Shown here: positions 2,374 to 22,182 of the stretch, in pieces
Numbering within the stretch: the stretch's first letter is position 1
Layout of the letters: every line of letters starts with the position of its first letter
Assembly: GCF_000025925.1 (NCBI RefSeq)
Contig: NC_014033.1
Coordinates: 1,920,001-1,952,000 of the forward strand
From: Xylanibacter ruminicola 23
GTDB lineage: Bacteria; Bacteroidota; Bacteroidia; Bacteroidales; Bacteroidaceae
Length of the DNA stretch: 32,000 nt
Direction of reading: 5' to 3'
Notes under the pieces: model-generated
What the model was told of the DNA's origin: nothing
Seen by the model: the letters and a program-made list of their open reading frames with translations, nothing else
Database searches by the model: none
Program-made: the position numbers and the translations under genes

Positions 2374-3513
2374 TTATTTTTTAGTTGTTGTACATTCATT
2401 TACCAGATACACAATACTCATATAAGGTATGCCTGTGTTCGATTCGAGACCAATCTCACAGGTACGACTGTTAGAGTAGCCCACCTCGATATGGTTAGCC
2501 TCAATCTGTGGGCGCAGCTTGCGCAATCCGTACTTATTCAGCTCTGGGAAGGTAAAGCCTCTGTCGCCAGCAAAGCCGCAACACCCCACACCCTCGGGTA
2601 GGAACACGTTGTTTGAGCACAGCTTAGCCAAAGCTATCATATCCTTATCTACACCCATCTGTCGGGTAGAACACGTCAGGTGCAGTGCTATATGACGGTC
2701 GATAGGATGGAAATCCAATCGAGGTACCAGGAACTTCATAATAAACTCGGCAGGCTCGTAGAGGTGCATCTTATGCATCACCTTCTTCATACGGTGCAGA
2801 CACGGACTCTGGGCGCACAGCACAGGATACTTACCCTCCTCGCTGGCTTTCCACAGGGCTGCCTCCAGTTCGGCACTCTTACGGTCGGCAATATCCAGCA
2901 TACCCTTACTCTCCCATATCTGGCCACAGCACATACGCTCCATGCCCTCTGGGAAGATTACCTCGTAGCCAGCCTTAGCCATCAACTGTATCACCTCATC
3001 CACCAGGTCGTGAATCTTGCCACCACTCTTCGACTGTCCCATGGTCTGATTGATACAGCTGGGGAAGTAAACCACCTTTGAACATTGAACATTCTTGCCT
3101 TGCAAGCCAGCAGAGCTGGAGCGGAACATTGAACATTGAACATTTTTATCTTCTGTTTGCGCAGCAGAATGGTCAATGGTCAACGGTGAATGGTCAATGG
3201 AATTAATGATAAACTGCGTCAGGTCGCTCTTCTTGGGCTGGCGATGCTTCTTAGGCATAGCGGTAGTCCAGAGTGGCAGGCCCATCTTGTTCATCGTACG
3301 ACATACGGTAGTCATCAGTGTCGGACCGAGTGTGACGTGTGCGGCATGTGCCACGTCGAGCACTACGCGCAGTCCGCTCTTGATGCCCGCCATATGCTTG
3401 GATGCATAATCACCCACCCAGTAGCCCAACGGACGTGTGTTCATGTCCAGTTGTCGTATCAGGTGCGTCAGCTCGCCTGTGTTTATCTTCATGGGGCATG
3501 ACGTTGAACACAA
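2374..3513 (-). CDS. cysteine-rich (CCG-type) C-terminal fragment of the same Dld-II/YdiJ-family oxidase
   Basis: It is in the same frame as 3568..5547, since 3570-3513=57. CCG-like motifs are present (MCCGQ, GCCGFAG). There is no credible independent start, because the ORF-track start is a TTG inside the Fe-S motif. It carries an in-frame repeat insertion. Confidence 0.7.
   Translation of the reverse strand: MCSTSCPMKINTGELTHLIRQLDMNTRPLGYWVGDYASKHMAGIKSGLRVVLDVAHAAHVTLGPTLMTTVCRTMNKMGLPLWTTAMPKKHRQPKKSDLTQFIINSIDHSPLTIDHSAAQTEDKNVQCSMFRSSSAGLQGKNVQCSKVVYFPSCINQTMGQSKSGGKIHDLVDEVIQLMAKAGYEVIFPEGMERMCCGQIWESKGMLDIADRKSAELEAALWKASEEGKYPVLCAQSPCLHRMKKVMHKMHLYEPAEFIMKFLVPRLDFHPIDRHIALHLTCSTRQMGVDKDMIALAKLCSNNVFLPEGVGCCGFAGDRGFTFPELNKYGLRKLRPQIEANHIEVGYSNSRTCEIGLESNTGIPYMSIVYLVNECTTTKK
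3079..3203. repeat. composite heptamer-array element inside the oxidase CDS
   Basis: TGAACAT x2 (3079-3092), a spacer holding two short palindromes, GAACAT+TGAACAT x2 (3124-3143), a second spacer, then ATGGTCA ATGGTCA ACGGTGA ATGGTCA ATGG (3169-3200). The arrays are mutually inverted. Confidence 0.9.
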
Positions 3514-3567
3514 GCCATCGGTAGCACAGGTCTGATCGCCATAGTACTTATACTGCTTCTGCAGGCG

Positions 3568-5469
3568 CTACAGGCGCTCGTCGTCCTCACCAGTCTTAAT
3601 CAGATGACAAATCTCGCGCTGTACGGCAATACGCATACGAGAAGATAGTGTGAGTCCGCACGACATACAGTTAACCTCGCAGAATCCGCACTCAATACAC
3701 TTGTTGGCACGCTTCACCTGCTCGATGGTTTCCTTGGCTGTACTCAGCTTGTGATCCATCAGGTAGTGTCCGCCATCAGGCACACTCTTGAAGTCGTAAT
3801 CCAACTCTGGCAGCGGCTTCAGACACTTGATAAAGCAGTCGGGATCGTCGTTGAATATCACACCCTGGTTCAGCAGTCCGTTCGGGTCGAAAATAGCCTT
3901 CAGCTCCTTCATCACCTCGTAGGCATTCTCGCCCCACTCGTACTTCACAAATGGTGCCATATTGCGACCCGTACCGTGCTCGGCCTTCAAACTGCCGTCG
4001 TAGCCCTCTACCACCAGCTTGGCCACATCGCGCATCATCTCGGCATAACGGGCCACCTCGTGCTCATCGGCAAAGCTCTGATTCAGAATAAAGTGATAGT
4101 TACCCTCGAACGCATGACCGTAGATACATGCATCGTCGTAGCCATGATCGGCTATCAGCTTCTGCAACTTCACGGTAGCCTCAGGCAGACTCTCGATGGG
4201 GAATGCCACATCCTCAATCAGGCACGAGGTGCCTACCGGACGTGTACCGCCTACCGATGGGAATATACCGCTACGGATGGCCCAGTACTTACCGTACACA
4301 GCCGGATCCTCGGTAAACTCGGCAGGAATATAGAGTTTGAATGGACCTAAGCACTCCTTAATCTTCTCGATCTTCAACAGCAGCTGATCGTGGGTAATAC
4401 CCTTGGTCTCGGTCAGTATAGCCGTTAAGTTATGGTAATCGCCAGGCTGCACGCCCTCAATCTTACCGGCATCCACATCCTGCTTATACTGCAGATAAAC
4501 GGGATCATCAACCGATGATAGCGACTTATAGTCGAGCATCTCGGCACTCTTCACCATCAGGTTCTCGGCGCTCATCTCCAGGTCTTCGTCGCCAGCCTTC
4601 AGCTTCTTCATAGCCACCACAGCCTCGCAACTCTCCTTCATGGTCATAAAGTAAACCATGGCCGATGCCTTGAACGGATAGTCCTTCAGTGTTTTCATCG
4701 TTACCTCCGACAGGAAGGCCAGTGTACCCTCGCTACCTACGATAGAGTGTGCGATGATATCAAACGGGTCGTCGTAAGCCACCAGTGGGCGCAGATTCAA
4801 ACCCGTTACATTCTTAATACTGTATTTCTTGGTAATGCGATTAGTCAGCTCCTGGTCGGCACGTACCTTGTCACGCAGTGCCTCGATCTTAGAGATAAAA
4901 TCAGGATGTTGTTTCTTGAATGCTTCGCGACTCACCGGGTCGCCAGTATCCAGTACCGTACCATCCGTCAGGATGATACGCGCCGATAGCAGCATACGGT
5001 CGCTATTGGCATGCACGCCGCAGTTCATACCCGAGGCATTGTTTACCACGATACCACCTACCATGGCAGCACCGATAGATGCCGGATCGGGTGGGAACAC
5101 ACGTCCGTATGGCTTCAGTATCTGATTAACCCTCGCCCCCACTATACCAGGTTGCAGCTTGATGCTCTCGGCTGTATCCGAAAGCATATACTTCTCCCAA
5201 TGCTTGCCAGCCACAATGAGCACGCTGTCGGTACAGCTCTGTCCCGAGAGCGATGTGCCAGCAGCACGGAAGGTAAAGGGCAGTTTATACTTGTCGCACA
5301 ACTGTACAATCTTTGATATCTCGGCCTCACCATCACTACGAAGCACTACCTTCGGAATCTGGCGATAAAAACTGGCGTCGGTACCCCAACCTAAGGTACG
5401 TAGCTCGTCGGTGTAAATGCGCTCGGCAGGCATGAATCGCCGAAGTTCTGATAAGAATTCGTTTAGCAT
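3568..5469 (-). CDS. FAD-binding oxidase / 4Fe-4S N-terminal fragment of a Dld-II (YdiJ-family) D-lactate/2-hydroxyacid dehydrogenase, ended by an in-frame TAG
   Basis: The ORF shows FAD-binding PCMH-type and FAD-linked oxidase C-terminal features plus CIECGFCEVNC. The likely start is the ATG at 5469 (MLNEFLSELRRF), downstream of a TATATTTG box at 5508-5515. The TAG at 3568-3570 is followed in frame by the next fragment. Confidence 0.8.
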   Translation of the reverse strand: MLNEFLSELRRFMPAERIYTDELRTLGWGTDASFYRQIPKVVLRSDGEAEISKIVQLCDKYKLPFTFRAAGTSLSGQSCTDSVLIVAGKHWEKYMLSDTAESIKLQPGIVGARVNQILKPYGRVFPPDPASIGAAMVGGIVVNNASGMNCGVHANSDRMLLSARIILTDGTVLDTGDPVSREAFKKQHPDFISKIEALRDKVRADQELTNRITKKYSIKNVTGLNLRPLVAYDDPFDIIAHSIVGSEGTLAFLSEVTMKTLKDYPFKASAMVYFMTMKESCEAVVAMKKLKAGDEDLEMSAENLMVKSAEMLDYKSLSSVDDPVYLQYKQDVDAGKIEGVQPGDYHNLTAILTETKGITHDQLLLKIEKIKECLGPFKLYIPAEFTEDPAVYGKYWAIRSGIFPSVGGTRPVGTSCLIEDVAFPIESLPEATVKLQKLIADHGYDDACIYGHAFEGNYHFILNQSFADEHEVARYAEMMRDVAKLVVEGYDGSLKAEHGTGRNMAPFVKYEWGENAYEVMKELKAIFDPNGLLNQGVIFNDDPDCFIKCLKPLPELDYDFKSVPDGGHYLMDHKLSTAKETIEQVKRANKCIECGFCEVNCMSCGLTLSSRMRIAVQREICHLIKTGEDDERL

Positions 5470-5507
5470 AGGGCGCTTGGGTTTAGTTATACTTCGATTT
5501 TTGTGAG

Positions 5508-5515
5508 CAAATATA
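5508..5515 (-). promoter_or_regulatory. Bacteroidetes-type -7 box (TATATTTG) for the oxidase gene
   Basis: The reverse complement of caaatata matches TAnnTTTG. It lies 38 nt upstream of the ATG at 5469. Confidence 0.45.
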
Positions 5516-5608
5516 CAAAATTTTTCGATATCACCACACTTTTTCAACGTTTTTTTGACTCTTTTGATTTTTTCACAAAAAAATCGTGGTACGTATCAAA
5601 AGTTTTCG

Positions 5609-5616
5609 TATATTTG
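5609..5616 (+). promoter_or_regulatory. -7 box (TATATTTG) for lactate permease
   Basis: Matches TAnnTTTG, 41 nt upstream of the ATG at 5658. Confidence 0.45.
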
Positions 5617-5657
5617 TCGGCAGAACTTATATAAATATTCACTAACACTAAAATCCT

Positions 5658-7262
5658 ATGTCAGCATTAGTATCTGCTATCCCTATTCTGTTACTCATTG
5701 TATTAATGATGGGTTTCAAGGTATCTGGCTACAAGAGCGCTATCGTTACGCTGATTGTAACCGTTGTATTGGCACTGTTCGCAGCACCAGCCTTAGGCAT
5801 TGTGCCCGAGAAGTATGCACAGGCAAGCATTGTTGGCATCACGCTATGGTCGGTAGTCGAGGGACTGCTCAAGGCCTGCTTCCCTATCATACTTATTATT
5901 ATATGTGCGATATTCAGTTATAACATCCTTTGCGAAACCAAGGAGATCGAGACGATTAAAACGCAGTTTATCCAGATGACCTCGGATAAAGGTCTGCTGG
6001 TACTGCTGCTTACATGGGGTCTTGGTGGTGTGCTCGAAGGTATGGCAGGCTTTGGTACGGCTGTGGCCATCCCGGCAGCCATCCTGATTGGCTTAGGTTT
6101 CAAGCCCATGTTCTCGGCTGTAATCTGTTTGATTGCCAACACCGTAGCTGTAGGCTTTGGTGCTGTGGGATTGCCCGCCACCACACTGGCCAACCAGGTT
6201 GCTGCCAGCGGTACCGCTACCCCCGAGGAGCTTTGCGAGGTAGCCACCTTTATTATCCTGCAGCTGTCGCTCATGTTCTTTATCACCCCGTTCCTTATCC
6301 TAATGCTTACCGATAAGACCAAGGTTGTCAAGAACATCTGCATTGCATTGTTTGTGGGTTCGTTCTCTATTATCGTGCAGTTCTGCTGTGCCCACTTTAT
6401 CGGTCCTGAGACACCAGCCATTCTGGGTTCGGTAGCCGCCATCGCCGCCATGCTGATTTACAACAAGCTGTTTATACACGATGAGAATCCTAATGACGAG
6501 GTGAAGGTTGAGAAGAAGAACTTCGGTCTGGTTAAAACGCTCAAGGCCTGGAGTGTTTACGGTTTGATTATCTTCTTCATCCTGATCAGTAGTAAGATTG
6601 TGCCTCCTGTTAACGAGCTGTTGGGTAGTACACTGGTTACCAAGTTCGAACTGCCCGTTATTGGCAACACCTTTAAGTTTGGCTGGCTGTCGAATGCCGG
6701 ACTGATGATTTTCCTGGGTGCTGTGATTGGCGGATTGATTCAGGGCATGAGTATCGGTGCCTTGCTGAAACTGCTGGCCAAGACCACACTGAACCTGCAG
6801 AAGACGGTGGTTACCATCTGCTGTCTGGTGGCCATGGCTATGCTCATGAACAATGTAGGTATGACTAACGATATCGCTAAGGGTCTGGTAATGCTTACCG
6901 GCGTGGCCTTCCCATTCTTTGCACCGCTCATCGGTTCTATCGGTACGTTTGTTACAGGTAGTGCCACCAACGCCAACATTCTGTTTGGTAAGCTGCAGGC
7001 CACTGCCGCTACCGACTTAGGATTGGTTAACCAGGGCACTTTCTTTGGTGTGAGTGGTAGCGAGACCAACTGGCTTGCTGCAGCCAACTGTGCCGGTTCC
7101 GAAGGTGGTAAGCTGCTGTCGCCACAAAGTATCGCCATCGCAACCGCAGCATGTGATATGGAGGGTCAGGATGGCGATATTATGCGTAAGACCATGCCGT
7201 TCGCTATCTTCTGGATACTGATGAACGGCCTGATGGTATTCTTAGGCTTGCACGTTATTTAG
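5658..7262 (+). CDS. lctP: L-lactate permease (LctP family)
   Basis: 534-aa polytopic membrane protein with LctP-family length and sequence character. It is divergent from a Dld-II-type oxidase, which is the classic lactate-utilisation pairing. Confidence 0.9.
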   Translation: MSALVSAIPILLLIVLMMGFKVSGYKSAIVTLIVTVVLALFAAPALGIVPEKYAQASIVGITLWSVVEGLLKACFPIILIIICAIFSYNILCETKEIETIKTQFIQMTSDKGLLVLLLTWGLGGVLEGMAGFGTAVAIPAAILIGLGFKPMFSAVICLIANTVAVGFGAVGLPATTLANQVAASGTATPEELCEVATFIILQLSLMFFITPFLILMLTDKTKVVKNICIALFVGSFSIIVQFCCAHFIGPETPAILGSVAAIAAMLIYNKLFIHDENPNDEVKVEKKNFGLVKTLKAWSVYGLIIFFILISSKIVPPVNELLGSTLVTKFELPVIGNTFKFGWLSNAGLMIFLGAVIGGLIQGMSIGALLKLLAKTTLNLQKTVVTICCLVAMAMLMNNVGMTNDIAKGLVMLTGVAFPFFAPLIGSIGTFVTGSATNANILFGKLQATAATDLGLVNQGTFFGVSGSETNWLAAANCAGSEGGKLLSPQSIAIATAACDMEGQDGDIMRKTMPFAIFWILMNGLMVFLGLHVI

Positions 7263-8055
7263 CAGGCTGCAGGTACCAGCGTACCGTCCAGCTTAGCTCA
7301 GCACCGGGAGCCAGGGTTGTATAAGCACCTTGGCTCTCGAGTTCTATATAGGTCTTGCCACGGTTCACGTACACCTGAATCTCGGCCTCACCAGGAGCAG
7401 GCTCATCAGCCTTCAGGTCGGCAAACTTCTTGGTCAGCACCAGTCCGTTGTTCTCGTAGCTCAGCCAGCCCTTACCGTCGGCATTCACCTTACGGTTCTG
7501 CTGGGCCTCGTCGGCAGCATAGCAAGCCACTCCGTCTTTCTGCTCAAAGTTCATCAAGCCAGCAGGCCAGATGCTCTCCACAGGGGCATCAAACTTAATC
7601 ACACCGGCATTAGGCACACGGGTAATCTCCCAAGGAGCCACTTTACGTTCCTCACCACTCTCGTTTATGATCGAATAGGTAATCACAATGGCACCATCCT
7701 TCTTGTCGGTACTGAAGTCCTTGCGCACACGGTACTTCAGCTTCTCCGATACCGGACTGGTCATCACCAGATGCCCGTCTTTCTCTACCACCTCGTACAC
7801 GCCCTTGTCGAGTTCGAATACGGGAGGCCAGTTCCACTCCTTCTGCGGACTTGTCCAGAAGGTGCTACCGAAGCTTTCGGGCCACCTGAGCTGCGAAATA
7901 ACTTCCTGATCCTGATACTTGAGCGACGTGATTTTAGCGCCCTTTTCGGGGGTGATGGTCATGGTTACATCACCAATCTTCACCTCTTTGGTCTGAGCCA
8001 TAGCAGCCGATGACATGAGCAGGGCTACAGCCGAAAGCATTACAATTCGTTTCAT
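7255..8055 (-). CDS. secreted protein, DUF4380-like (aldose-epimerase-like beta-sandwich), function unknown
   Basis: The ORF is 7255..8094. The preferred start is the ATG at 8055 (MKRIVMLSAVALLMSSAAMAQ signal peptide). The family assignment is from memory of similar Bacteroidetes proteins. Confidence 0.6.
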   Translation of the reverse strand: MKRIVMLSAVALLMSSAAMAQTKEVKIGDVTMTITPEKGAKITSLKYQDQEVISQLRWPESFGSTFWTSPQKEWNWPPVFELDKGVYEVVEKDGHLVMTSPVSEKLKYRVRKDFSTDKKDGAIVITYSIINESGEERKVAPWEITRVPNAGVIKFDAPVESIWPAGLMNFEQKDGVACYAADEAQQNRKVNADGKGWLSYENNGLVLTKKFADLKADEPAPGEAEIQVYVNRGKTYIELESQGAYTTLAPGAELSWTVRWYLQPAK

Positions 8056-8165
8056 ACTTATAGTTGATAATGATTTTTTTGATGTTAGACGCACGCCAAG
8101 GGCAAAAGTTAAGCCTCATTATAGTTCGTTAACGTTAGTTGTTTTGTTTTGTGCGCGCTTAATCG

Positions 8166-8173
8166 TACCTTTG
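8166..8173 (+). promoter_or_regulatory. -7 box (TACCTTTG) only 8 nt before the MFS start codon
   Basis: Matches TAnnTTTG. The context is TTTGCACCCGAAATG. Confidence 0.45.
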
Positions 8174-8181
8174 CACCCGAA

Positions 8182-9471
8182 ATGGATAAACTTTGGAATA
8201 GGAACTACTGCAAGGTAATGGCAGCCAACTTTACGTTGTTTTTTGCCTTTTACGTGCTTACACCACTGTTGCCGCTCTACCTGAGCGAGCACTTCGGAGC
8301 CACTAAGGACGTGATCGGACTGGTGCTTTCGGGCTATACCATCACCGCCCTGCTGTTTCGTCCGTTCAGCGGCTATGTAGTAGATTCGTTTCCCCGCAAA
8401 ATGGTGCTCATGGTGTCGTTTAGCGTGTTTGCCATCTTCTTTGCCGGCTACCTGGCCGCCTCTACCCTGTTGCTGTTCACCATTGTGCGCACGCTGCATG
8501 GCGGTCCGTTCGGCGCCCTCACCGTGGCCAATTCTACCGTGGCCATCGATGTGCTGCCCAGCAGCCGTCGTACCGAGGGTATCGGCTATTACGGCTTGAG
8601 CAACAATCTGGCCATGGCCATCGCCCCCACCATCGGCATTTTCATCTACCAGCTTACCAACAGCTTCGAGTTTCTGTTCTGGTTAGCGCTCATCGTAGCC
8701 ACCACAGGCTGGCTGATCGATAGTACTGTAAAGCTTAAGCCTAGAGATTCTAGCCAGGCTAGAAGCTCAAGGCTCTCACTCGACCGCTTCTTCCTTACAC
8801 GTGGCTGGCTGTTGGGCCTGAACATGGTGGCTTTTGGCTTTAGTTTTGGTGTGCTTAGCAACTATCTGGCCATTTATGGTAAGGAGGTAATGGGTATTAC
8901 CGGTGGCACAGGCACCTATTTCATGCTGTGCTCAGTAGGTCTTATCCTCAGTCGCCTGCAGGGTAGCAAAGCCCTCCGCGACGGTCGTGTAACCCATAAC
9001 GCCGCTACCGGTATGGTCATCTCCCTGGTAGGCTACACATTGTTTATACTCATGCCAACCTTGGCTCAAAGTTCCATGGTCAATGGTCAATGTTCAATGG
9101 TCAATGGTCAATGTTCAATGGTCAATGGTCAATGGTCAATGTTCAATGGTCAATGGTCAATGTTCATCGGCTACTACGGTTCCGCATTGTTGATTGGTTT
9201 AGGCAACGGTCATATGTGGCCTGCGTTCCAGAACATGACCATCAATGTGGCCACCAACAAACAGCGTGGCACTGCCAACAGTACCATCCTTATCTCGTGG
9301 GATATCGGTATGGGATTAGGTATTCTGGCTGGTGGTATCGTAGCCGAGCTCATTAGCTATAGCGCAGCCTTCTGGACGGTAGTACTCGTTAACGGTACGG
9401 GTGTAGCCACGTATTTCCTGGCTACGCGCGCCTTCTTCCTGCGCCGTAACCTCAATCCTACCGTACGATAA
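8182..9471 (+). CDS. MFS transporter carrying a 13-unit heptamer array in frame
   Basis: The ORF is 8149..9471. The start is the ATG at 8182 (MDKLWNRNYCKVMAANF). It has multiple TM helices and MFS-like loops. Confidence 0.85.
   Translation: MDKLWNRNYCKVMAANFTLFFAFYVLTPLLPLYLSEHFGATKDVIGLVLSGYTITALLFRPFSGYVVDSFPRKMVLMVSFSVFAIFFAGYLAASTLLLFTIVRTLHGGPFGALTVANSTVAIDVLPSSRRTEGIGYYGLSNNLAMAIAPTIGIFIYQLTNSFEFLFWLALIVATTGWLIDSTVKLKPRDSSQARSSRLSLDRFFLTRGWLLGLNMVAFGFSFGVLSNYLAIYGKEVMGITGGTGTYFMLCSVGLILSRLQGSKALRDGRVTHNAATGMVISLVGYTLFILMPTLAQSSMVNGQCSMVNGQCSMVNGQWSMFNGQWSMFIGYYGSALLIGLGNGHMWPAFQNMTINVATNKQRGTANSTILISWDIGMGLGILAGGIVAELISYSAAFWTVVLVNGTGVATYFLATRAFFLRRNLNPTVR
8750..8762. repeat. perfect 13-nt palindrome CTAGCCAGGCTAG inside the MFS CDS
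   Basis: Read directly from the sequence. The identical 13-mer recurs at 11429-11441 inside mfd. Confidence 0.9.
9076..9166 (+). repeat. tandem heptanucleotide array, 13 units (ATGGTCA/ATGTTCA)
   Basis: The units run contiguously from 9076 to 9166 in the pattern GGT GGT GGGT GGT, where G=ATGGTCA and T=ATGTTCA. The array translates as SMVNGQCSMVNGQCSMVNGQWSMFNGQWSMF. Confidence 0.95.
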
Positions 9472-9480
9472 AATCAATGA

Positions 9481-10308
9481 TTAGCGTACCAGCCCCTTCT
9501 TCATGTCGCGCATCTTACAAGGTATCCAAACCGTAACATGGGTACCCTTGCCTTTCTCCGACTTCAGGTCGATGGTGCCATGCAGCCCCTCAACAATCGA
9601 CTTGCAGATAGATAAGCCCAGACCCGAACGCTGATTAAACAGTGCCAGCGAATCGTTACCCTGAATGAGTGTTGAGAAGTTCGACTTGAAGTCCTGAGGC
9701 TCACCGTCGCCTGTATCAATCACTTCTATCTTCAAGCCATTATCGGCATAATCATAATCGATGGTAATGGTACCCTCCTGGGTGTGCGCAAGCGCATTGT
9801 GCAACAGGTGTGTCATCAGCTGATACATCAGGTTGGTATCTACCATGCCCTTGGCGTGAGGCGATAATGGCGAACGTACAACTACTTGTACATTGGCACC
9901 TGCGTCGCGCTGAGCCTCACGGCGATACGACGCTATCAGCTCGGCCAGATTCACCTCTATCAAGGTAAAAGTGGCCATATTACTATCAAAGCTCGACAGT
10001 TCGAGTAGCTGCGATATAAAATACAGCAGCTGCTTACCATTCTGGTTAATGGTAGTCATCATGGCTTTCAGTTTCTTCGGATCAGACTCTTCATTATCCA
10101 GCAGCTTCTGACTATCGGTAATAATAGCATTCAAAGGCGTACGCAAGGCATGACTCACATTGGCCATAAACACCGTTTTAATACGCTCGCTACGCTGTGC
10201 ACGACCTATTTCATTTCTTAGGCGCACGTGATAATAATGCTGCACCAAAAAAAGACAGATTGCAAACAAAACCAGAATCAGAATAAAAATAATCGATTGC
10301 CAACTCAT
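9481..10308 (-). CDS. sensor histidine kinase (one TM, HisKA and HATPase_c, no obvious sensor domain)
   Basis: 275 aa. The H-box is SHALRTPLNAI and the C-terminal ATPase region contains the G-box-like segment SGLGLSICKSIVEGLHG. Confidence 0.85.
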   Translation of the reverse strand: MSWQSIIFILILVLFAICLFLVQHYYHVRLRNEIGRAQRSERIKTVFMANVSHALRTPLNAIITDSQKLLDNEESDPKKLKAMMTTINQNGKQLLYFISQLLELSSFDSNMATFTLIEVNLAELIASYRREAQRDAGANVQVVVRSPLSPHAKGMVDTNLMYQLMTHLLHNALAHTQEGTITIDYDYADNGLKIEVIDTGDGEPQDFKSNFSTLIQGNDSLALFNQRSGLGLSICKSIVEGLHGTIDLKSEKGKGTHVTVWIPCKMRDMKKGLVR

Positions 10309-10334
10309 AATGCTGTATTTTAGGTTTTAGACTG

Positions 10335-10342
10335 CAAAGATA
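10335..10342 (-). promoter_or_regulatory. -7 box (TATCTTTG) for the histidine kinase
   Basis: The reverse complement of caaagata lies 26 nt upstream of the ATG at 10308. Confidence 0.45.
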
Positions 10343-10352
10343 AGAAATAATC

Positions 10353-10390
10353 CGAAAAAAAAGAAGCAGTTAACATTTGTTAACTGCTTC
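10353..10390 (-). terminator. rho-independent terminator of hsp20
   Basis: On the minus strand a 12-bp perfect stem, GAAGCAGTTAAC-aaat-GTTAACTGCTTC, is followed by a T8 run. It starts 13 nt after the hsp20 stop. Confidence 0.8.
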
Positions 10391-10402
10391 TCCAATGTTT
10401 TA

Positions 10403-14307: not shown

Positions 14308-14320
14308 TGTGATTCGCGGA

Positions 14321-14328
14321 CAAAGATA
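14321..14328 (-). promoter_or_regulatory. -7 box (TATCTTTG) for mfd
   Basis: The reverse complement of caaagata lies 13 nt upstream of the ATG at 14307. Confidence 0.45.
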
Positions 14329-14336
14329 CAAAAAAA

Positions 14337-14403
14337 GGCACGAATAACGCGAATTTACACGAATTAATTTATTTTCTTCGCGTTAATTCGCGTATTTCGT
14401 GCC
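14337..14403. repeat. 67-nt palindromic element built from CRCGAATT units (copy A)
   Basis: The left arm is GGCACGAATAACGCGAATTTACACGAA and the right arm TTCGCGTTAATTCGCGTATTTCGTGCC, pairing at 23 of 27 positions. The loop is 13 nt and AT-rich. On the minus strand it is followed by T7. A near-identical copy lies at 22108-22172. Confidence 0.85.
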
Positions 14404-14448
14404 TAAACACACTCTGGCGCTACACGATTTCTTCGACAAGCGAAGCGT

Positions 14449-14550
14449 TTACACGATTTGTACGCCCGAGGCAGCTGCTCCTGCCGCTCCTAACAAGGCG
14501 GTGATTACTGCCACCACGATCTTCGCAATCGTCCTCCAGTTCTTCATCAT
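14449..14550 (-). CDS. 33-aa hydrophobic small protein ('smalltalk'-like), not in the ORF track
   Basis: The sequence is ATGATG...TAA, encoding MMKNWRTIAKIVVAVITALLGAAGAAASGVQIV. AAGGAGGA sits 4 nt upstream of the first ATG. The ORF lies directly downstream of an HU-like gene. Confidence 0.55.
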   Translation of the reverse strand: MMKNWRTIAKIVVAVITALLGAAGAAASGVQIV

Positions 14551-14603
14551 AATTCCTCCTTTCTTAATTTTTACATTATTACATTTTTACATTTTAATAA
14601 GGC

Positions 14604-14619
14604 TGGGGCCGAAGCCCCA
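14604..14619 (-). terminator. UUCG-tetraloop hairpin just after the HU-like gene; a weak terminator or a processing/attenuation site
   Basis: On the minus strand it reads TGGGGC-TTCG-GCCCCA, 5 nt after the stop. The downstream tract is AT-rich but is not a clean U-run. Confidence 0.45.
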
Positions 14620-14623
14620 AACC

Positions 14624-15058
14624 TTAATCCCCGATGGGCTCGTGGCTGCCACCGCCGTTACCACCGTTGCTTGGCTGGGTGTTGCCACCGTTGCCACCAC
14701 CGTTGCTACCGCTGTTAGCGGGCTTAGTGGTGTCGACATCGTTCTTTGGCGCCTCCTGCACACTGCAACCAGTGATGAAGGTCTTCTGACGCAGACCACT
14801 GCCATCGGTCTTTACCTCGGGCTGAAACAGCACGTGCAAGCCTTTGATGTTCTTGCTGATGCTGAAGTCAGCAGCGCTGTCAGCGCCCTCGCCACGGATA
14901 CCGATCTTAAACGATCCAAAGCCATTCAGCTTCACGCGCTTAGAATCCTGTAACTGGTCGGCCATCGTCTCGATGAGCTCAGAGATCACAGCCACGATAT
15001 CGGCCTTTTTCAAGGTACAGTTACGCTGCATGATAGCGGCCAGCATCTCCGTATCCAC
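14624..15058 (-). CDS. HU-family (Bacteroidales HU-like) DNA-binding protein with a Gly/Asn-rich C-terminal tail
   Basis: It shows the HU-fold pattern (TLKKADIVAVISELIETMADQL...VKLNGFGSFKIG) and the tail NSGSNGGGNGGNTQPSNGGNGGG. The start is uncertain, since the first start-capable codon in the open frame is GTG. Confidence 0.75.
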   Translation of the reverse strand: MDTEMLAAIMQRNCTLKKADIVAVISELIETMADQLQDSKRVKLNGFGSFKIGIRGEGADSAADFSISKNIKGLHVLFQPEVKTDGSGLRQKTFITGCSVQEAPKNDVDTTKPANSGSNGGGNGGNTQPSNGGNGGGSHEPIGD

Positions 15059-15167
15059 GGTCTGGGTAATCCAATCGTGCGCCCATAGCCAGGAAAGCAG
15101 CCCAACAAATTGATCCTGGGCTTAGATAATTAGTTGTTGTGTTAGCTACTTCGGTCATTCCGGAATG

Positions 15168-15175
15168 CAAAAGTA
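15168..15175 (-). promoter_or_regulatory. -7 box (TACTTTTG) for the HU-like gene
   Basis: The reverse complement of caaaagta lies 109 nt upstream of the GTG at 15058. Confidence 0.4.
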
Positions 15176-15224
15176 ACAAAAATATTTGAAACTTTAAATA
15201 CTTCTTCGTATCTTTGCCGCAGAA

Positions 15225-15425
15225 ATGGAGAATAAGCTATTCTTTTGGTTGAACTCACCCGAATTAGCAAAATTACGTGTATCAGAACGAGTTGCTAATG
15301 GTGGTCATAATATCCCTCAAGATGTAATTAGTAGAAGATATGTCGCAGGTATTATACTTAAAAATGCAGAGTTATGTCAAATAAAGAAATACAGGAATTT
15401 AACGAGAAATTGCGTCGTGGCTTAG
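15225..15425 (+). pseudogene. fragment of a zeta-toxin/AAA-ATPase family gene (middle portion only)
   Basis: LFFWLNSPELAKLRVSERVANGGHNIPQDVISRRYVAGI resembles the conserved C-terminal half of roughly 190-aa Bacteroidetes zeta-toxin-like ATPases. No P-loop N-terminus is present. The family match is from memory. Confidence 0.5.
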
Positions 15426-15559
15426 AGCTGGCTGAGAAAAGGATGCTTCAAGAAAAAGCTCTAAGAAATCAGGATGTAGTGGTTTGCGGAGCCGACCAGG
15501 TTATACGCCGTATACCTGCCAAACAGGTAATAGCCGATAATCCTATTTTTCAGGATTAG
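15374..15559 (+). CDS. small hypothetical protein, possibly an antitoxin-like partner of zeta-type ATPases
   Basis: 61-aa ORF, MSNKEIQEFNEKLRRGLELAEKRMLQEKALRNQDVVVCGADQVIRRIPAKQV. It resembles small proteins found beside such ATPases. This is recollection, not a search result. Confidence 0.4.
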   Translation: MSNKEIQEFNEKLRRGLELAEKRMLQEKALRNQDVVVCGADQVIRRIPAKQVIADNPIFQD

Positions 15560-15718
15560 AAGTAACTAACAGTACAAATGAAACTAAAAACATGATGAGA
15601 TTAATGGTGGTATGCTGATTATAGATTATGGCATGGCTGCTGATGGGCCTGGATATTACTTCAAAAAGATAATACCAACATTTTCTACATTTGAAAATTA
15701 AATAAAACAACAATAACC

Positions 15719-15860
15719 ATACAAAGAAAAACGAGTTTTCCTTTGGTATTTCGCTCGCTTATTCGTATATTTGAACTCCGTTCGAAGATAGGCTGCACCT
15801 CGGAAATACAAAGAAAAACGAGTTTTCCTTTGGTATTTTGCTCACTTATTCGTATCTTTG
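15719..15860 (+). repeat. direct duplication of a 55-nt promoter-like cassette (15719-15773 and 15806-15860)
   Basis: The copies match at 52 of 55 positions. Each contains an imperfect hairpin (ATACAAAGAAAAACGAGTTTTCCTTTGGTAT) and ends in a TAnnTTTG box (TATATTTG or TATCTTTG). Confidence 0.9.
15853..15860 (+). promoter_or_regulatory. -7 box (TATCTTTG) for the GT2 operon
   Basis: It lies 22 nt upstream of the ATG at 15883. A TTTG sits 20 nt upstream of the box, in the -33 position. Confidence 0.5.
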
Positions 15861-15882
15861 CCACCGATTTAAATGAGAATAT

Positions 15883-16632
15883 ATGAAGCAAAGCGATAGT
15901 ATAGTTATCATACCAACCTATAATGAGAAGGAGAATATCGAGAAGATTATACGCGCGATATTCGGGTTGGAGAAGAGTTTCCATATACTGGTGATCGACG
16001 ATGGATCGCCTGATGGTACGGCTGCCATTGTGCGTAGCCTGATGTCCAATGAGTTTGGCGGACAGCTGCACCTGGTGGAGCGTAGCGGCAAACTGGGACT
16101 GGGAACAGCTTACATTGCCGGATTTAAGTGGGCACTGGAGCGCGACTACGAATACATATTTGAGATGGACGCCGACTTTAGTCACGACCCGAACGACTTG
16201 CCACGACTGTATGCGGCCTGCAAAGACGAGGGCTACGATGTGGCTATCGGTAGCCGTTACGTGAGCGGTGTGAACGTGGTTAACTGGCCTATCGGACGTG
16301 TGCTGATGAGTTACTTTGCATCGAAATACGTGCGCTTGGTAACGGGCTTTAACGTACACGACACCACTGCAGGATTTAAGTGCTACAAGCGCCGTGTGCT
16401 GCAGACCATCGAACTGGATAAGATCCGATTCAAGGGCTATGCCTTCCAGATAGAAATGAAGTACACTGCCTACAAGATTGGCTTTAAGATCAAGGAGGTG
16501 AGCGTGATATTCGTGAACCGACAGGAGGGCGTGAGCAAGATGAGCGGTGGCATATTCGGCGAGGCATTCTTTGGCGTGATGAAACTGCGCTGGGACGGAT
16601 GGACGAGACGATATCCGAAAATTGAAAATTGA
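15883..16632 (+). CDS. GT2 glycosyltransferase, polyprenol/dolichol-phosphate mannose synthase-like
   Basis: 249 aa with VIIPTYNEKENI, VIDDGSPDGT and EMDADFSHDP motifs, typical of the DPM1/Ppm1 family. Confidence 0.9.
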   Translation: MKQSDSIVIIPTYNEKENIEKIIRAIFGLEKSFHILVIDDGSPDGTAAIVRSLMSNEFGGQLHLVERSGKLGLGTAYIAGFKWALERDYEYIFEMDADFSHDPNDLPRLYAACKDEGYDVAIGSRYVSGVNVVNWPIGRVLMSYFASKYVRLVTGFNVHDTTAGFKCYKRRVLQTIELDKIRFKGYAFQIEMKYTAYKIGFKIKEVSVIFVNRQEGVSKMSGGIFGEAFFGVMKLRWDGWTRRYPKIEN

Positions 16633-16650
16633 CCATTGAACATTGAACAT
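16617..16650 (+). repeat. heptamer array bridging the GT2 stop and the acyltransferase start
   Basis: GAAAAT TGAAAAT TGACCAT TGAACAT TGAACAT, followed by TATG. The TGA of the TGACCAT unit (16630-16632) is the GT2 stop codon. Confidence 0.9.
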
Positions 16651-16651
16651 T

Positions 16652-17413
16652 ATGCTTAAGATACTATATAGAATCTACCAGTTTATTGTTTGTTTGCCGG
16701 GAATAGTGCTGATGACGATGATTACAGCACTCGAGGTGGGCATTGGTACCACCATAGGCAATGGCCACTTCTGGGGCTACATGCCTGGCCATATATGGGG
16801 AAAGATTATCCTCAAGATGTTTCTGATACCGGTAAAGGTGGAGGGGCGCGAACATCTGGAAAAGAACCAGAGCTACGTGTTTGTGGCCAACCATCAGGGT
16901 TCGTTCGACATATTCCTGATTTACGGACATCTGAACCGCAACTTTAAGTGGATGATGAAACAGGCGCTGCGCAAGGTGCCATTCTTAGGCTATGCGTGCG
17001 AAAAGAGTCACCAGATATTTGTGGACAAGCGCGGACCCAGCAAGATACGTAAGACCTACAACGATGCACGTGAGATACTGAAGGAGGGCTACAGCGTAAC
17101 GGTATTCCCAGAGGGTGCACGCTCGTTTACCGGGCATATGGGCGTATTCAGAAAGGGCGCCTTTGCACTGGCCGACGAACTGCAGTTGCCGGTAGTACCA
17201 CTCACCATCAACGGATCGTTCGACATCCTGCCACGCATGAAGGGCTTTAACTTTGTGAACTGGCATCCGATGACGCTGACCATACACGAGCCTATCTACC
17301 CCGTAGGACAGGGTCCTGAGAACGTAGAGGCAACGCTGCGACAGGCGTACGACTCGGTAATGTCGGCACTCGCCCCTAAATACCAGGGCTTTGTAGAGAA
17401 TCCCGATCAATGA
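16652..17413 (+). CDS. 1-acyl-sn-glycerol-3-phosphate acyltransferase family (PlsC-like) protein
   Basis: The ORF is 16643..17413. The preferred start is the ATG at 16652 (MLKILYRIYQ). It has an N-terminal TM helix, the NHQGSFD (HX4D) motif and the FPEGARS motif. Confidence 0.85.
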   Translation: MLKILYRIYQFIVCLPGIVLMTMITALEVGIGTTIGNGHFWGYMPGHIWGKIILKMFLIPVKVEGREHLEKNQSYVFVANHQGSFDIFLIYGHLNRNFKWMMKQALRKVPFLGYACEKSHQIFVDKRGPSKIRKTYNDAREILKEGYSVTVFPEGARSFTGHMGVFRKGAFALADELQLPVVPLTINGSFDILPRMKGFNFVNWHPMTLTIHEPIYPVGQGPENVEATLRQAYDSVMSALAPKYQGFVENPDQ

Positions 17414-18345
17414 TTATCATCCGATTTATCATCATCACGGTGCTATTTGTGATAGCACTTACTGCCGTCAGCATCTGGGCCTATAAGCGCCGACAGAAGC
17501 TGGTGATGGCAGGTGCTGCCGTGGTGTGGTATATTGCGCTGTACGGCACCTTTATCGGCTTCCAGAAGCTGGAAGTGAACCATCAGACATATACATCGGC
17601 CGAGCTGCCGAAGGCTTTCGACGGCTACAAGATAGTGCTCTTTTCGGATGCGCACGTGGGCAGCTACACGGGGCGCAACGAGTGGCTGCTGCAAAGGGCG
17701 GTTGACTCGATAAATGCACAGAAGCCCGACATGATTGTGTTTACTGGCGACCTGCAGAACGTGGATCCGCAGGAGATAGCCGAACACCTGAGCACACTGA
17801 GCCAGCTGAAGGCTAAGGACGGCGTGTACAGCGTGCTGGGCAATCACGACTACGATAAGTACTTGCTACAAAAGGATGGGCTTGACACGCAGCCTTGCCG
17901 CGAAACCATCGCTCTGGAGAAGCGCATGGGCTGGCACCTGCTGCAGAACGAGAACTGCACCATTAAGCGCGGCAACGACAGCTTGACGATAGCGGGCTTG
18001 GATAATGATGGCGACGGCAAGCGATTTCCACAGCGAGGCGACGTAAAAAAGGCGTTGCAAGGGGCTACACCATTTGTAATCATGCTGGAGCACGACCCGA
18101 GTGGATGGCGACGCAAGATACTGCCCGATGGGCGCGCACAACTGACCCTGAGCGGACATACGCACAACATGCAGTTTGCACTGTTTGGTTGGGCGCCGAT
18201 GAAGTTGACGGGCAAAGAGATTAACGGCTGGTACGAGGAAGGTAGTCAATCGCTGTTTGTAACGGCAGGCTTAGGGGGATTGATTCCGTTCCGCTTTGGT
18301 GCCACAGGGGAGATCGTGGTGATTACATTAAACATTAAACATTAA
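17410..18345 (+). CDS. membrane-anchored metallophosphoesterase (calcineurin-like)
   Basis: 311 aa with DAHVG, GDLQN, GNHD and SGHTH motifs and two N-terminal TM helices. An ATGA overlap links it to the upstream gene. Confidence 0.85.
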   Translation: MIIIRFIIITVLFVIALTAVSIWAYKRRQKLVMAGAAVVWYIALYGTFIGFQKLEVNHQTYTSAELPKAFDGYKIVLFSDAHVGSYTGRNEWLLQRAVDSINAQKPDMIVFTGDLQNVDPQEIAEHLSTLSQLKAKDGVYSVLGNHDYDKYLLQKDGLDTQPCRETIALEKRMGWHLLQNENCTIKRGNDSLTIAGLDNDGDGKRFPQRGDVKKALQGATPFVIMLEHDPSGWRRKILPDGRAQLTLSGHTHNMQFALFGWAPMKLTGKEINGWYEEGSQSLFVTAGLGGLIPFRFGATGEIVVITLNIKH

Positions 18346-18367
18346 ACATTAAACATTAAACATTTAA
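18325..18367. repeat. heptamer array ACATTAA x5 plus a degenerate unit at a convergent gene junction
   Basis: The units run from 18325 to 18359, followed by ACATTTAAC. The array contains both stop codons: TAA at 18343-18345 on the plus strand and TAA at 18356-18358 on the minus strand. Confidence 0.9.
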
Positions 18368-19171
18368 CCACTTTCTTAGGACTTCGGCGGGAACGGCACG
18401 GCGGCGGGCGTAATCCTGTAACTGATCTTCGCCGATTTTACCAATGGCAAAATAACGGGCTTTTGGGTTGGATATCATCATGCCACTCACACTGGCATGG
18501 GGCTTCATGGCACCGCTCTCGGTAAGGCGGATGCCAATCTGTTTCATATCCAATATCTCATCTAACAGGAAATTCAAACTGGTATCGGGCAACGAAGGAT
18601 AGCCCACAGCGGGACGGATACCCTGGAACTTCTCGACGAGCATATCCTCTATGCTCAGGTTCTCATCCTTGGCATAGCCCCAATACTCCTTACGTACCTG
18701 TTCGTGCAGGCGCTCGGCAGCGGCTTCGGCCAAACGGTCGGCTAGCAGCTGGGTGAGCATCTTCTGATACACATCGCCATCAAAATCGGTCTCTAAGCCA
18801 ATATCAACAGTAGTGGCGAACAAGCCTAGTTTGGATGCCTTGGGCGAAATAAAATCGGCTAAGCACATAAACGGGGGATTGCCTTGCTGCTGGCGCAGAC
18901 AGGGGATGGTGGCTACACGCACGGGGTGCTTAACGCCACAATCGGGGCACAGCTGGGTGCGGTAAATCTCGATATCATCATCCTGACTACGGGCATCGAA
19001 CAGCTCGAAGACGGCATGCATCTGATACTGGGCATCCAGCTCCTGCAACTTGGCAAGGGCTTCGGCGTGCATACGCTGCTTCTCGGCCTCTTCCTTTACC
19101 TGCCAGGCAAAGTAGTAGTACACCCAGTTGATATAGGGCACCAGCTCGGATATGCGGTAGGTAATCTTCAT
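18356..19171 (-). CDS. stand-alone B12-dependent methionine synthase activation (AdoMet-binding) domain protein
   Basis: GIRPAVGYPSLPD...RLTESGAMKPHASVSGMMISNPKARYFAIGKIGEDQLQDYARRR matches the conserved C-terminal reactivation domain of MetH. Confidence 0.8.
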   Translation of the reverse strand: MKITYRISELVPYINWVYYYFAWQVKEEAEKQRMHAEALAKLQELDAQYQMHAVFELFDARSQDDDIEIYRTQLCPDCGVKHPVRVATIPCLRQQQGNPPFMCLADFISPKASKLGLFATTVDIGLETDFDGDVYQKMLTQLLADRLAEAAAERLHEQVRKEYWGYAKDENLSIEDMLVEKFQGIRPAVGYPSLPDTSLNFLLDEILDMKQIGIRLTESGAMKPHASVSGMMISNPKARYFAIGKIGEDQLQDYARRRAVPAEVLRKWLNV

Positions 19172-20499
19172 CTAAACTGAACGGGTTGACCGATATAGTT
19201 GGTATCTACAACGCCATCCTTGTAAACGGTATGACCATTGCAAAGCGTCTGCTCAACACGCCACAGGTAGGTGTGGTTCTCCATCGGACTCCAACCGCAC
19301 TTGCTCTGGATGATGTCCTTGGTTACAGTCCATGCGGCATTAGGACGCACAATCACGATGTCGGCCTGATAACCTTCGCGCAGATAGCCACGGTTACGCA
19401 CACCGAACAAATCGGCTGGGCGATGGCACATCAGCTCAACCAAACGCTCGATGGTGAGCACACCTTTATCAACCAACTCAAGCATGGTTACCAACGAGAA
19501 CTGCAGCATGGGCATGCCACTGGCAGCCTTACAGCAACCACCCTCTTTCTGTTCTAACAGGTGGGGAGCATGGTCGGTACCAATCACTGCGATACGTCCA
19601 TCGGCCACAGCCTGACGCAGCGCATCGCGATCGGCTGCCGACTTGATGGCTGGGTTGCACTTGATACGGGTGCCTAAAGCGTTGTAATCGCGATCGCAGA
19701 AGTAGAGGTGACTTGGTGTCACCTCACAGGTGATGGGTGATGGGTGTGGGGTGTGGGGGATTAGCTCTAACTCCTTGGCCGTAGTGAGGTGGGCAATATG
19801 CAGATGGGCATGGTGCTTCAGGGCCAGCTCTACAGCCAGTTTGGTGCTCTGATAGCAGGCCTCAACGCTACGAATCTCGGGGTGATGGGTTACCTTAGGG
19901 TCGTCGCCATACAGGCGCTTAGCCTCGGCCATATTGCGGTTAATAATGTCGGTATCTTCGCAATGTACCATGATAGGCATCTGGGCGGTAGAGAAAATCT
20001 TCTCTAAAGCCTCACGACGATCTACGAGCATGTTACCCGTTGAACTACCCATGAAGAGCTTGATGCCAGGAATACGATGCACATCGAGTTGCGAAAACAG
20101 ATCGACATTATCGTTGGTGGCACCGAAAAAGAAACTATAGTTGACGTGACTTTTCTGAGCGGCCAGCTTAAACTTTTCGTCGAGGGCCTCGAGGGTGGTA
20201 GTCTGCGGTACGCAGTTGGGCATATCAAAGTAGGTGGTAACGCCACCTGCTGCTGCTGCCCTACTCTCGCTATCGATATCGGCCTTGGCAGTTAAGCCTG
20301 GCTCACGAAAGTGCACATGATCATCAATCAGACCGGGAAGTACGAAACATCCCGAAGCATCAATCACTTCGTCGAATGATGCGTTCGGGATGGTGTTTCC
20401 TTCTACAATCTTAGTTATCTTAGAATCTTCGACGATGACAGAACCGTCGAATTTGTTGGCGTCGTTAACGAGCGTTCCGTGTAGAATCAGGCGTTTCAT
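19168..20499 (-). CDS. pyrC: dihydroorotase (amidohydrolase superfamily)
   Basis: The ORF is 19168..20544. The preferred start is the ATG at 20499 (MKRLILHGTLVND). It has the DDHVHFREPG metal-binding motif and the GTDHAPH motif. Confidence 0.9.
   Translation of the reverse strand: MKRLILHGTLVNDANKFDGSVIVEDSKITKIVEGNTIPNASFDEVIDASGCFVLPGLIDDHVHFREPGLTAKADIDSESRAAAAGGVTTYFDMPNCVPQTTTLEALDEKFKLAAQKSHVNYSFFFGATNDNVDLFSQLDVHRIPGIKLFMGSSTGNMLVDRREALEKIFSTAQMPIMVHCEDTDIINRNMAEAKRLYGDDPKVTHHPEIRSVEACYQSTKLAVELALKHHAHLHIAHLTTAKELELIPHTPHPSPITCEVTPSHLYFCDRDYNALGTRIKCNPAIKSAADRDALRQAVADGRIAVIGTDHAPHLLEQKEGGCCKAASGMPMLQFSLVTMLELVDKGVLTIERLVELMCHRPADLFGVRNRGYLREGYQADIVIVRPNAAWTVTKDIIQSKCGWSPMENHTYLWRVEQTLCNGHTVYKDGVVDTNYIGQPVQFR
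19729..19756. repeat. heptamer array GGTGATG x2 plus GGTGTGG x2 inside pyrC
   Basis: Read directly from the sequence. On the coding strand it encodes PHTPHPSPI. Confidence 0.85.
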
Positions 20500-22172: not shown

Positions 22173-22182
22173 TAATTTTCAC

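Follow-up and report, generated by a model that had tools for sequence, protein, structure and literature searches.

We analysed a stretch of 32,000 nucleotides of Xylanibacter ruminicola 23 (contig NC_014033.1, positions 1,920,001 to 1,952,000; here called the window), in which tandem arrays of 7-nt units (heptamer arrays) recur within and between genes. According to Pfam, the genes that host or border these arrays encode an FAD-linked oxidase with a CCG domain, an MFS transporter, a GT2 glycosyltransferase, an acyltransferase, a metallophosphoesterase, a Met_synt_B12 protein, and an amidohydrolase/dihydroorotase (pyrC). In the oxidase gene, heptamer units flank a 30-nt segment, here called core-1, which is predicted to fold into two small hairpins. 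The arrays are DNA-level features that are polymorphic among relatives, and the core is dispersed, with a constant insertion site and a covarying hairpin, mostly in genes and read in three frames. We favor, as reasonably probable, an explanation in which rumen Prevotella harbor a selfish family of repeats built in two layers, the heptamer arrays and the small hairpin cores, with its orientation filtered by selection.

Heptamer arrays and core-1 in the window

Tandem Repeats Finder (TRF) identified seven arrays with a period of 7 nt in the window (Table 1). Their positions matched those of the initial annotation, which had described a dispersed family of such arrays, to within 1 to 5 nt. Using a single scoring scheme for periods 4 to 12, we observed five period-7 arrays of at least ~2.6 units, against a mean of 0.01 and a maximum of 1 in 200 dinucleotide-preserving shuffles, and under the same scoring there were no arrays in the window with a period of 6 or of 9 to 12. 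The arrays were thus confirmed as real, and what the initial annotation had overlooked was the spacer between the first two of them, which is core-1, a dispersed hairpin element.

Table 1. Heptamer arrays, core-1, and the intervening segment in the window (^, junction between core and array)
Feature	Position	Strand	Remarks
TGAACAT array, 2.3 units	3078-3093	+	Left flank of core-1; stop-containing on + strand; oxidase gene (-) reads ..NVQCS..
Core-1, double hairpin, 30 nt, CTTGCCTTGCAAGCCAGCAGAGCTGGAGCG	3094-3123	+	Between heptamer units ..CATT^..^GAACATT; translated RSSSAGLQGK
GAACATT x3 array	3124-3144	+	Right flank of core-1
Non-repeat segment, 23 nt	3145-3167		Separates the two oppositely oriented oxidase arrays
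TGACCAT array	3168-3200	- (sense strand of oxidase)	TGA orientation; encodes SIDHSPLTIDHS
MFS-gene array	9062-9166	TGA-containing strand, -	13 ATGGTCA/ATGTTCA units (9076-9166) preceded by 2 decayed units (9062-9075)
TGAAAAT x2, TGACCAT, TGAACAT x2 array	16617-16651	+	Intergenic, GT2/acyltransferase
ACATTAA x6.3 array	18325-18368	+	Between convergent metallophosphoesterase and Met_synt_B12 genes
pyrC-gene array, TGATGGG x2 and TGTGGGG x2 on + strand	19729-19758 (TRF, 19729-19761)	+	- strand, CCCACAC/CCATCAC

The reading of open reading frames (ORFs) and the Pfam assignments also upheld the earlier account of how each array is read relative to the coding sequences (CDSs). The oxidase gene lies on the minus strand, for which the whole segment from 3078 to 3144 is in stop-free orientation. 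In the array at 3168-3200, which this gene reads in the TGA orientation, the only unit carrying an in-frame TGA is altered to TCA (unit TCACCGT; TCACCG in place of TGACCA). The 23 nt between these oppositely oriented arrays may be a remnant of an ancestral hydrophilic linker, judging from the peptides of the window (CAGAAGATAAA) and of the relative L128 (CAGAAGGAAGA). The protein of the MFS gene (8182-9471) is 100% identical to the MFS transporter of X. ruminicola 23. The array of this gene is translated as (SMVNGQC/W)n and probably lies in a loop, as suggested by the hydrophobic segments on both sides of it; an AlphaFold2 model of the protein had a mean predicted local distance difference test score (pLDDT) of 32, with a shallow alignment. 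In pyrC, the array reads IPHTPHPSPI in place of an ancestral LTDG. The two intergenic arrays supply stop codons. That at 16617 holds the TGA of the GT2 gene (16630-16632) and runs up to the ATG of the acyltransferase gene (16652), so that the whole stop-to-start spacer is filled, and that at 18325 provides the TAA stops of both the metallophosphoesterase gene (18343-18345, plus strand) and the Met_synt_B12 gene (18356-18358, minus strand).

Core-1 is dispersed and has a constant insertion site

Some orthologues of the MFS protein (12 of the clusters described below) carry an additional 10-residue block, PLQLCWLARQ or APALLACKAR, whose DNA is the reverse complement of window positions 3094 to 3123. 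The same 30 nt are read in three frames, giving these two peptides in MFS and RSSSAGLQGK in the oxidase. When 24 nt of the core were searched for in metagenome contigs, 54 rumen contigs were retrieved; together with the relatives, this placed the identical core in 46 distinct contexts. The junctions are strongly constrained, with T at position -1 in 39 and at -2 in 38 of the 46 contexts, and G at +1, A at +2, and C at +3 in 42, 44, and 33 of them, respectively. The resulting insertion consensus is RTT^core^GAC, nearly always between heptamer units, and the flanking heptamers vary by site (GAACATT, GACCATT, GACAGTT, GATAGTT, and GAGAGTT).

Most copies of core-1 (47 of 62 [76%]) were in long ORFs, in a ratio of 42:5 in favor of the orientation with stop-free flanking heptamers. 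The host genes encode proteins as different as RsmF, MiaA, a SpoU methylase, GH2, GH31, and GH97 enzymes, an M16 peptidase, a sugar transporter, a histidine kinase, Mfd, the MFS transporter, and the oxidase. Core-1 is stop-free in all six frames. The hydrophilic reading RSSSAGLQGK was used 21 times and the two hydrophobic readings 8 and 6 times, with 3 further copies read on the other strand; the MFS membrane protein uses a hydrophobic reading. This uneven use of the frames suggests selection on the encoded peptide.

The presence of the core differs cleanly between orthologues. At one site, the RsmF genes of L133 and L135 (89% identity) have arrays with the same number of units, and what sets them apart there is exactly the 30-nt core. 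Where core-1 lies outside arrays (L137, L141, L143, and L166), it is not flanked by a direct repeat, and the core is 100% conserved. The clean 30-nt difference and the lack of direct repeats argue for seamless insertion or excision, as in single-strand mechanisms of the REP/RAYT or IS200/IS605 type, or for gene conversion between arrays. Within arrays, however, a 7-bp target duplication would look the same as one more unit. For another insertion outside arrays, in L153, the homologues found were only 34 to 38% identical, and the linker was variable. RsmF orthologues from different species (L135, 10268-11554, and L180, 955-2208) carry an identical core-1 at the same site within different flanks (GACCATT and GAGAGTT, respectively), and that of L133 (150-1451) is empty at this site and has core-1 at another one. 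Such a pattern implies either a hot spot at this position or arrays whose evolution greatly outpaces that of the core.

Several classes of elements were considered for core-1 and rejected. Its structure consists of two internal hairpins, and the termini (CTTGCC.. and ..GGAGCG) do not form inverted repeats, which speaks against a miniature inverted-repeat transposable element. Integron GTTRRRY core sites and an IntDOT-type 7-bp overlap were discarded because the cut position and the spacing do not match. Rfam 15 gave no match at the gathering threshold in the window or in L127, L148, and L167. Neither core-1 nor the pattern of the sister cores described below was found in viral contigs, so there is no sign of carriage by phages.

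Sister cores share a covarying double hairpin

Core-1 belongs to a family. The 16617 and 18325 sites, core-less in the window, carry other cores of 33 and 38 nt in khp1 and RM4, at the same unit phase; the 33-nt core of the 16617 site was found in the relatives L127 and L129, and RM4 has core-1 in mfd. Further variants were present in metagenome contigs, some of them in tandem and spaced by exactly one or two units. The cores are 30 to 42 nt long and follow the pattern CTT(T)GC..GCAA(A)G, then a second small hairpin, then an AGCG end. In nearly every variant, DNA folding predicted a pair of adjacent hairpins. The stem of the second hairpin is CAGC/GCTG, GACC/GGTC, GAAC/GTTC, GATC/GATC, or GGC/GCC in nine variants. 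When the 3' halves of the cores were compared, 95.5% of the cells of this stem could pair and three of the five pairs had changes on both sides, a covariation that was reached in none of 500 shuffles.

About 14 contigs (L134, L140, L158, L161 to L163, L179, and others) share a promoter-like spacer that ends with a core-0 followed by core-1 and then by GACATTGAATTATTAACC. The latter is complementary to the 3' terminus of genes from a family whose products end in ..YLGFNDG*, and the sequence downstream varies by contig. We considered that the conserved left flank of core-0 and core-1 was the end of a larger autonomous element, and rejected this because the flank looks like an orthologous promoter-containing spacer and not like an insertion sequence.

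Arrays vary in unit number and sequence among relatives

The MFS protein was compared across 120 orthologue clusters of 86 to 100% identity, obtained with a search that favored full-length proteins. The segment between MPTL and IGYYGS had 6, 13, 20, 27, or 34 residues, corresponding to 1, 4, 7, 10, and 13 units (17, 19, 34, 18, and 5 clusters, respectively), that is, steps of three units or 7 amino acids. Another 15 clusters had no array; they showed an unrelated 9-residue ancestral segment, and the ancestral allele had no repeat in its DNA. One lineage carried four CTCAATT units, as checked in the DNA, at the site of the ATGGTCA/ATGTTCA array of the window.

The other sites were similarly variable. 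The composite array of the oxidase is identical in three close relatives and is missing from a relative of ~90% identity, where there is a short hydrophilic linker (1003 amino acids versus 1031). LLTDGITAEV is read at the pyrC site of most relatives. The window exceeds it by 5 residues, and further strains hold decayed heptamers or CTCCTTC arrays that add as many as 14 residues. One of these genes (L186, 1501-2859) has about eight CTCCTTC units, translated as LPPPSSSFLPPSSFLLPP. This unit is stop-free on both strands, showing that not every Prevotella heptamer is of the TGA type. In the distant relative (L128), the spacer between the GT2 and acyltransferase genes contains (AGTGAAG)3, and that between the convergent genes (the 18325 site) contains only two imperfect units. 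All 120 MFS and all 120 pyrC clusters were in frame, in searches that favored full-length proteins. These orthologue comparisons bore out that the arrays of the MFS, pyrC, and oxidase genes are recent, lineage-specific insertions with a highly variable number of units. They also agree with the earlier proposal that what is shared is DNA and not protein, as the reading frame used for the same core and heptamers changes from site to site. Since the same sites are empty or have other heptamers in relatives, the array sites are hot spots, with a turnover of arrays that is faster than that of the flanking genes.

Orientation of the arrays relative to genes

We made a census of 156 arrays in the window and in 54 loci of other rumen Prevotella. 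These 54 loci (414 kb) contained 151 period-7 arrays, against 4 to 17 for periods 5, 6, 8, and 9. More than half of the census arrays (88 [56%]) were outside ORFs, in DNA of which only about 10 to 12% is non-coding. About 39 arrays, a quarter, were truly interior to ORFs, anywhere along the genes and without a preference for the 5' end. All of them were in the open orientation or had a point variant killing the in-frame TGA; such rescue variants were found in L025, L042, and L135 and are of the same kind as that at 3168-3200 in the window. Among the 39 arrays abutting gene 3' ends, 19 contained the stop codon. An apparent orientation bias of the arrays upstream of genes (23:9) was discarded, since it vanished (23:22) when the count also included the arrays absorbed into maximal ORFs.

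With at least three TGANNNN units in a row, all three frames of one strand contain stops, each of them every 21 nt, and a surviving CDS must therefore read the other strand. The initial annotation had described the orientation as obeying a keep-the-ORF-open rule and had known of no described class with such properties. The pattern holds in the window and in the 54 loci. It is a consequence of sequence and selection and no property of the element itself, and the class is not new either. Heptamer arrays are known as short tandemly repeated repetitive (STRR) sequences or long simple sequence repeats (LSSR) (PMC4692102), and the same orientation logic was published for TAACTGA heptamers of Beggiatoaceae, cyanobacteria, and some Bacteroidetes (MacGregor 2015, PMC4679880).

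Distribution and comparison with known repeats

Three consecutive ATGKTCA units were found at 120 loci or more in contigs representing one genome per species. Among the matches listed, 54 were from rumen Prevotella or other Bacteroidaceae and 23 from cyanobacteria, and the rest were from Chitinophagales, Ignavibacteria, and others; period 7 was dominant in all three groups of listed loci. The cyanobacteria with this pattern, Calothrix, Tolypothrix, Fischerella, and Nostoc among them, include classic hosts of STRR sequences. The unit of STRR2 is TTGGTCA, from which the ATGGTCA/ATGTTCA units of the window are one base away at best, and the host here is not a cyanobacterium. At a locus of Calothrix sp. 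NIES-2100 (L072, 991-1065), a strong 45-nt hairpin (DNA dG, -14.8) lies in phase between AATGACA units, which indicates that the architecture of array plus hairpin is not confined to Prevotella. The cores work much like the small dispersed repeats (SDRs) of Nostocaceae, which are reportedly 21 to 27 nt long, behave like mobile elements, and use short specific insertion sequences. The cores differ from them in sequence and belong to a different phylum; a link between SDRs and heptamer arrays may exist, to judge from the single Calothrix locus.

In a broad sense, the arrays belong to the STRR/LSSR phenomenon (PMC4692102, PMC4679880). As in the systems described before (Mazel 1990; Mrazek 2007; the GGGAATC repeats of Xanthomonas, PMC4692102), they are dispersed tandem 7-nt units with only period 7 enriched, several related unit families per genome, length variation between close strains, and inverted pairs. 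They differ in that their host is a rumen member of the Bacteroidota, the units are TGANNNT with an excess of TGA, and about a quarter of them are inside genes. A close parallel is with the TAACTGA repeats (PMC4679880), which in forward orientation stop three frames and occur at ORF ends only, and in reverse orientation are translatable within ORFs. They too overlap upstream genes at their stop codons and border on start codons, and related genomes have no array in the same spacers. In contrast to ours, they have another unit (absent from the Tandem Repeats Finder results for the window), are overwhelmingly intergenic and upstream of starts, were reported without a nested hairpin, and are hosted by Beggiatoaceae, cyanobacteria, and five Bacteroidetes other than Prevotella.

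The cores resemble other small repeats in part. As summarised in PMC10969869, the Rickettsia palindromic elements (RPEs; Ogata 2000) are selfish palindromes inserted in frame in many unrelated housekeeping genes. Core-1 is likewise inserted in frame in unrelated genes and tolerated as extra peptide segments. In the same summary, the RPEs are about 100 to 150 bp long, yield a single conserved peptide from one frame, and come without tandem arrays, in contrast to the 30 to 42 nt and the three or four peptides of the Prevotella cores. Repetitive extragenic palindromic (REP) sequences and REP doublets (REPINs), with their REP-associated tyrosine transposases (RAYTs), and the mini elements of IS200/IS605 are also short, highly repeated hairpins with imperfect palindromes. 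They share with the cores the lack of terminal inverted repeats, a clean presence or absence, and constant bases flanking the junction over a short stretch; they also show no visible target duplication, as is the case for the cores at sites outside arrays. In contrast to the extragenic REPs, core-1 has 76% of its copies in ORFs. Inverted doublets were not seen, and the target consensus is only RTT^GAC.

Origin of the arrays and cores

Under the explanation that we favor, the first layer consists of the arrays, which are of the STRR/LSSR type, mostly TGANNNT, and occur at a density of about one per 4 to 5 kb. Their units would be won and lost by slipped-strand mispairing, with a turnover quick enough for different units to occupy one site in different lineages. 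The second layer would be elements of 30 to 42 nt, composed of two adjacent small hairpins and an AGCG tail and placed as RTT^core^GAC between units. These appear and vanish cleanly between close strains, and identical copies have reached dozens of sites; the arrays would serve as their landing pads or possibly as their carriers. In genes, purifying selection would let only the stop-free orientation and a frame-keeping total length persist, for the most part where the protein has a linker or loop. Arrays in the stop-bearing orientation would be confined to spacers and to gene ends, which then take their stop codon from the array, unless a point change has removed the in-frame TGA. We infer that slippage is the process that changes array length and that selection causes the orientation pattern. 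Because of the hairpins and the lack of a visible target duplication, our leading guess, and it is only a guess, is that the cores may be moved by an enzyme of the HUH/Y1 type acting on single-stranded DNA, as in REP/RAYT or IS200/IS605.

Several observations weigh against this two-layer origin. At all three intragenic sites of the window, the array substitutes for 15 to 40 nt of ancestral sequence, whereas a clean transposon would merely add to it. No transposase or other mobilising gene was found, with none for a RAYT (Y1 transposase) among the ORFs examined in the 32-kb window, the rest of the genome not having been searched, and gene conversion between arrays could copy cores without transposition. 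A purely neutral picture does not predict that, at gene 3' ends, the stop-bearing array strand is the gene strand in a ratio of 22:7, in a census made with crude ORF calls on loci picked for carrying an array and not on a whole annotated genome. Nor does it predict the presence of TGA in 50 of 85 independently found Prevotella units (23.5 expected), an excess that was not seen in units from cyanobacterial or other loci. Neither signal is accounted for by the consequence of sequence and selection set out above. Finally, two observations fit a 7-bp duplication: at both intergenic sites, the alleles with a core are longer (6 and 7 units) than the core-less allele of the window (5 units), and the flanking unit GAGAGTT of RsmF in L180 matches a sequence present once in the empty orthologue L133.

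Such a duplication would be produced if the core transposed with a 7-bp staggered cut, each insertion duplicating a heptamer and each excision leaving the duplicate behind, so that the arrays would be piled-up target-site duplications. Besides the two allele comparisons just given, this would account for the over-representation of period 7 in particular, for the core being flanked by two identical heptamers in 18 of the 46 contexts (with a single base different in 9 more), for the spacing of tandem cores by exactly one unit, and for the enrichment in units of TGA, which spans the cut site T^GA. We consider it unlikely, since L133 and L135 differ by exactly 30 nt at equal unit number (a result in which selection for the frame could mask a +7/-7 change), the insertions outside arrays have no direct repeat despite their fully conserved core, the units in MFS, oxidase, and pyrC are not derived from local ancestral sequence, and the majority of arrays are core-less. 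It is just as improbable that the cores are an undescribed class of ultra-small (30- to 42-nt) mobile elements, living mainly in protein-coding genes, whose own product is the arrays, be it through accumulated 7-bp duplications or as footprints of repeated insertion and excision at T^GA. If this were true, it would explain mechanistically how the excess of heptameric tandem repeats, long noted in bacteria, came about. Cyanobacteria should then be no different, and one of them does have a hairpin in phase in an AATGACA array.

That each array was made locally by slippage, through a polymerase bias for 7-nt units, with similar units explained by mutational bias and the cores as unrelated passengers, seems to us distinctly unlikely. 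Polymorphism in unit number is typical of simple sequence repeats, polymerase slippage has been proposed for the over-representation of heptamers in many bacteria (Mrazek 2007, as cited in PMC4692102 and PMC4679880), the two imperfect units of L128 look like a proto-array, and the ATGKTCA pattern occurs in many phyla. Against this plain microsatellite origin stand the same or related units at unrelated sites, not derived from local ancestral sequence, and the abrupt arrival of arrays as composite blocks, e.g., in the oxidase. Moreover, no local origin is possible for an identical 30-nt core with a fixed phase and differing units at 46 sites. A role in regulation, in which intergenic arrays would bind a regulator of single-stranded nucleic acids (one protein per heptamer) or serve as three-frame stop blocks or elements of untranslated regions, with the intragenic arrays as spill-over, is in our view quite improbable. 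It would fit the concentration of arrays outside ORFs, the 3'-end ratio and the stop codons inside arrays, and the enrichment of TGA. A post-transcriptional role was, moreover, proposed for the TAACTGA repeats (PMC4679880), which the 16617 array resembles in filling its spacer, and the expression of recF and recO in Nostoc is affected by heptamer repeats (bioRxiv 10.1101/2022.06.06.494920). Yet the units at one site differ by lineage, close relatives are array-less with no visible effect on gene order, 5' ends lack an orientation bias (23 versus 22, counting arrays absorbed into ORFs), and selection against insertions in genes predicts the intergenic excess equally well. The high variability of unit number among strains, with a unit whose length is not a multiple of three, might also point to contingency loci, in which each unit gained or lost in a gene would shift the frame and act as an on/off switch (phase variation). 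This is very improbable, given that all the MFS and pyrC clusters (from searches favoring full-length proteins) were in frame, with MFS in steps of exactly three units. Furthermore, the hosts are housekeeping enzymes (pyrC, Mfd, RsmF, MiaA, and glycoside hydrolases) and not surface or restriction genes, and the arrays are not placed near the 5' end.

Implications

Within the searchable literature, we found no report of heptamer arrays or cores in Prevotella. Heptamer repeats are a known and unexplained oddity of some bacterial genomes, here found in an abundant rumen genus, and their association with a discrete hairpin that has a fixed insertion point and a clean presence or absence gives a handle on the mechanism. 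For annotation, this means that many Prevotella housekeeping proteins contain strain-variable junk peptides (SMVNGQC repeats, RSSSAGLQGK, and others), that protein lengths differ in 7-residue steps, and that some stop codons come from repeat DNA. After the Rickettsia RPEs as they are summarised, this would be a second case of selfish DNA persisting through its translatability, with an element about five times smaller and read in several frames.

Other hairpin repeats and the oxidase gene

A larger homologous hairpin insert of 66 to 89 nt (..CTCGGCAATTCAAGCAAACTTGATTGCCCTCGC..), different from the cores, was present in metagenome-assembled genomes of other rumen Bacteroidaceae (L071, 5159-5347; L086, 1884-2006; L088, 1499-1633), where it is nested in ATGTTCA/ATGGTCA arrays in either orientation. 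In the window, an imperfect palindrome of ~66 nt (GGCACGAATWACGCGAAT..AT-rich loop..ATTCGTGCC) occurs in two copies, 14337-14402 and 22109-22174, both intergenic. From its sequence, this palindrome appears to be a second dispersed family of hairpin repeats, unrelated to the cores. The oxidase gene (2374-5469, minus strand) has an in-frame TAG at 3568-3570 where khp1 and relatives have GAG, and apart from this codon it is equal in length to the genes of three relatives, without indels. Strain 23 may have a nonsense mutation or use a read-through site here, or the TAG may be a sequencing error.

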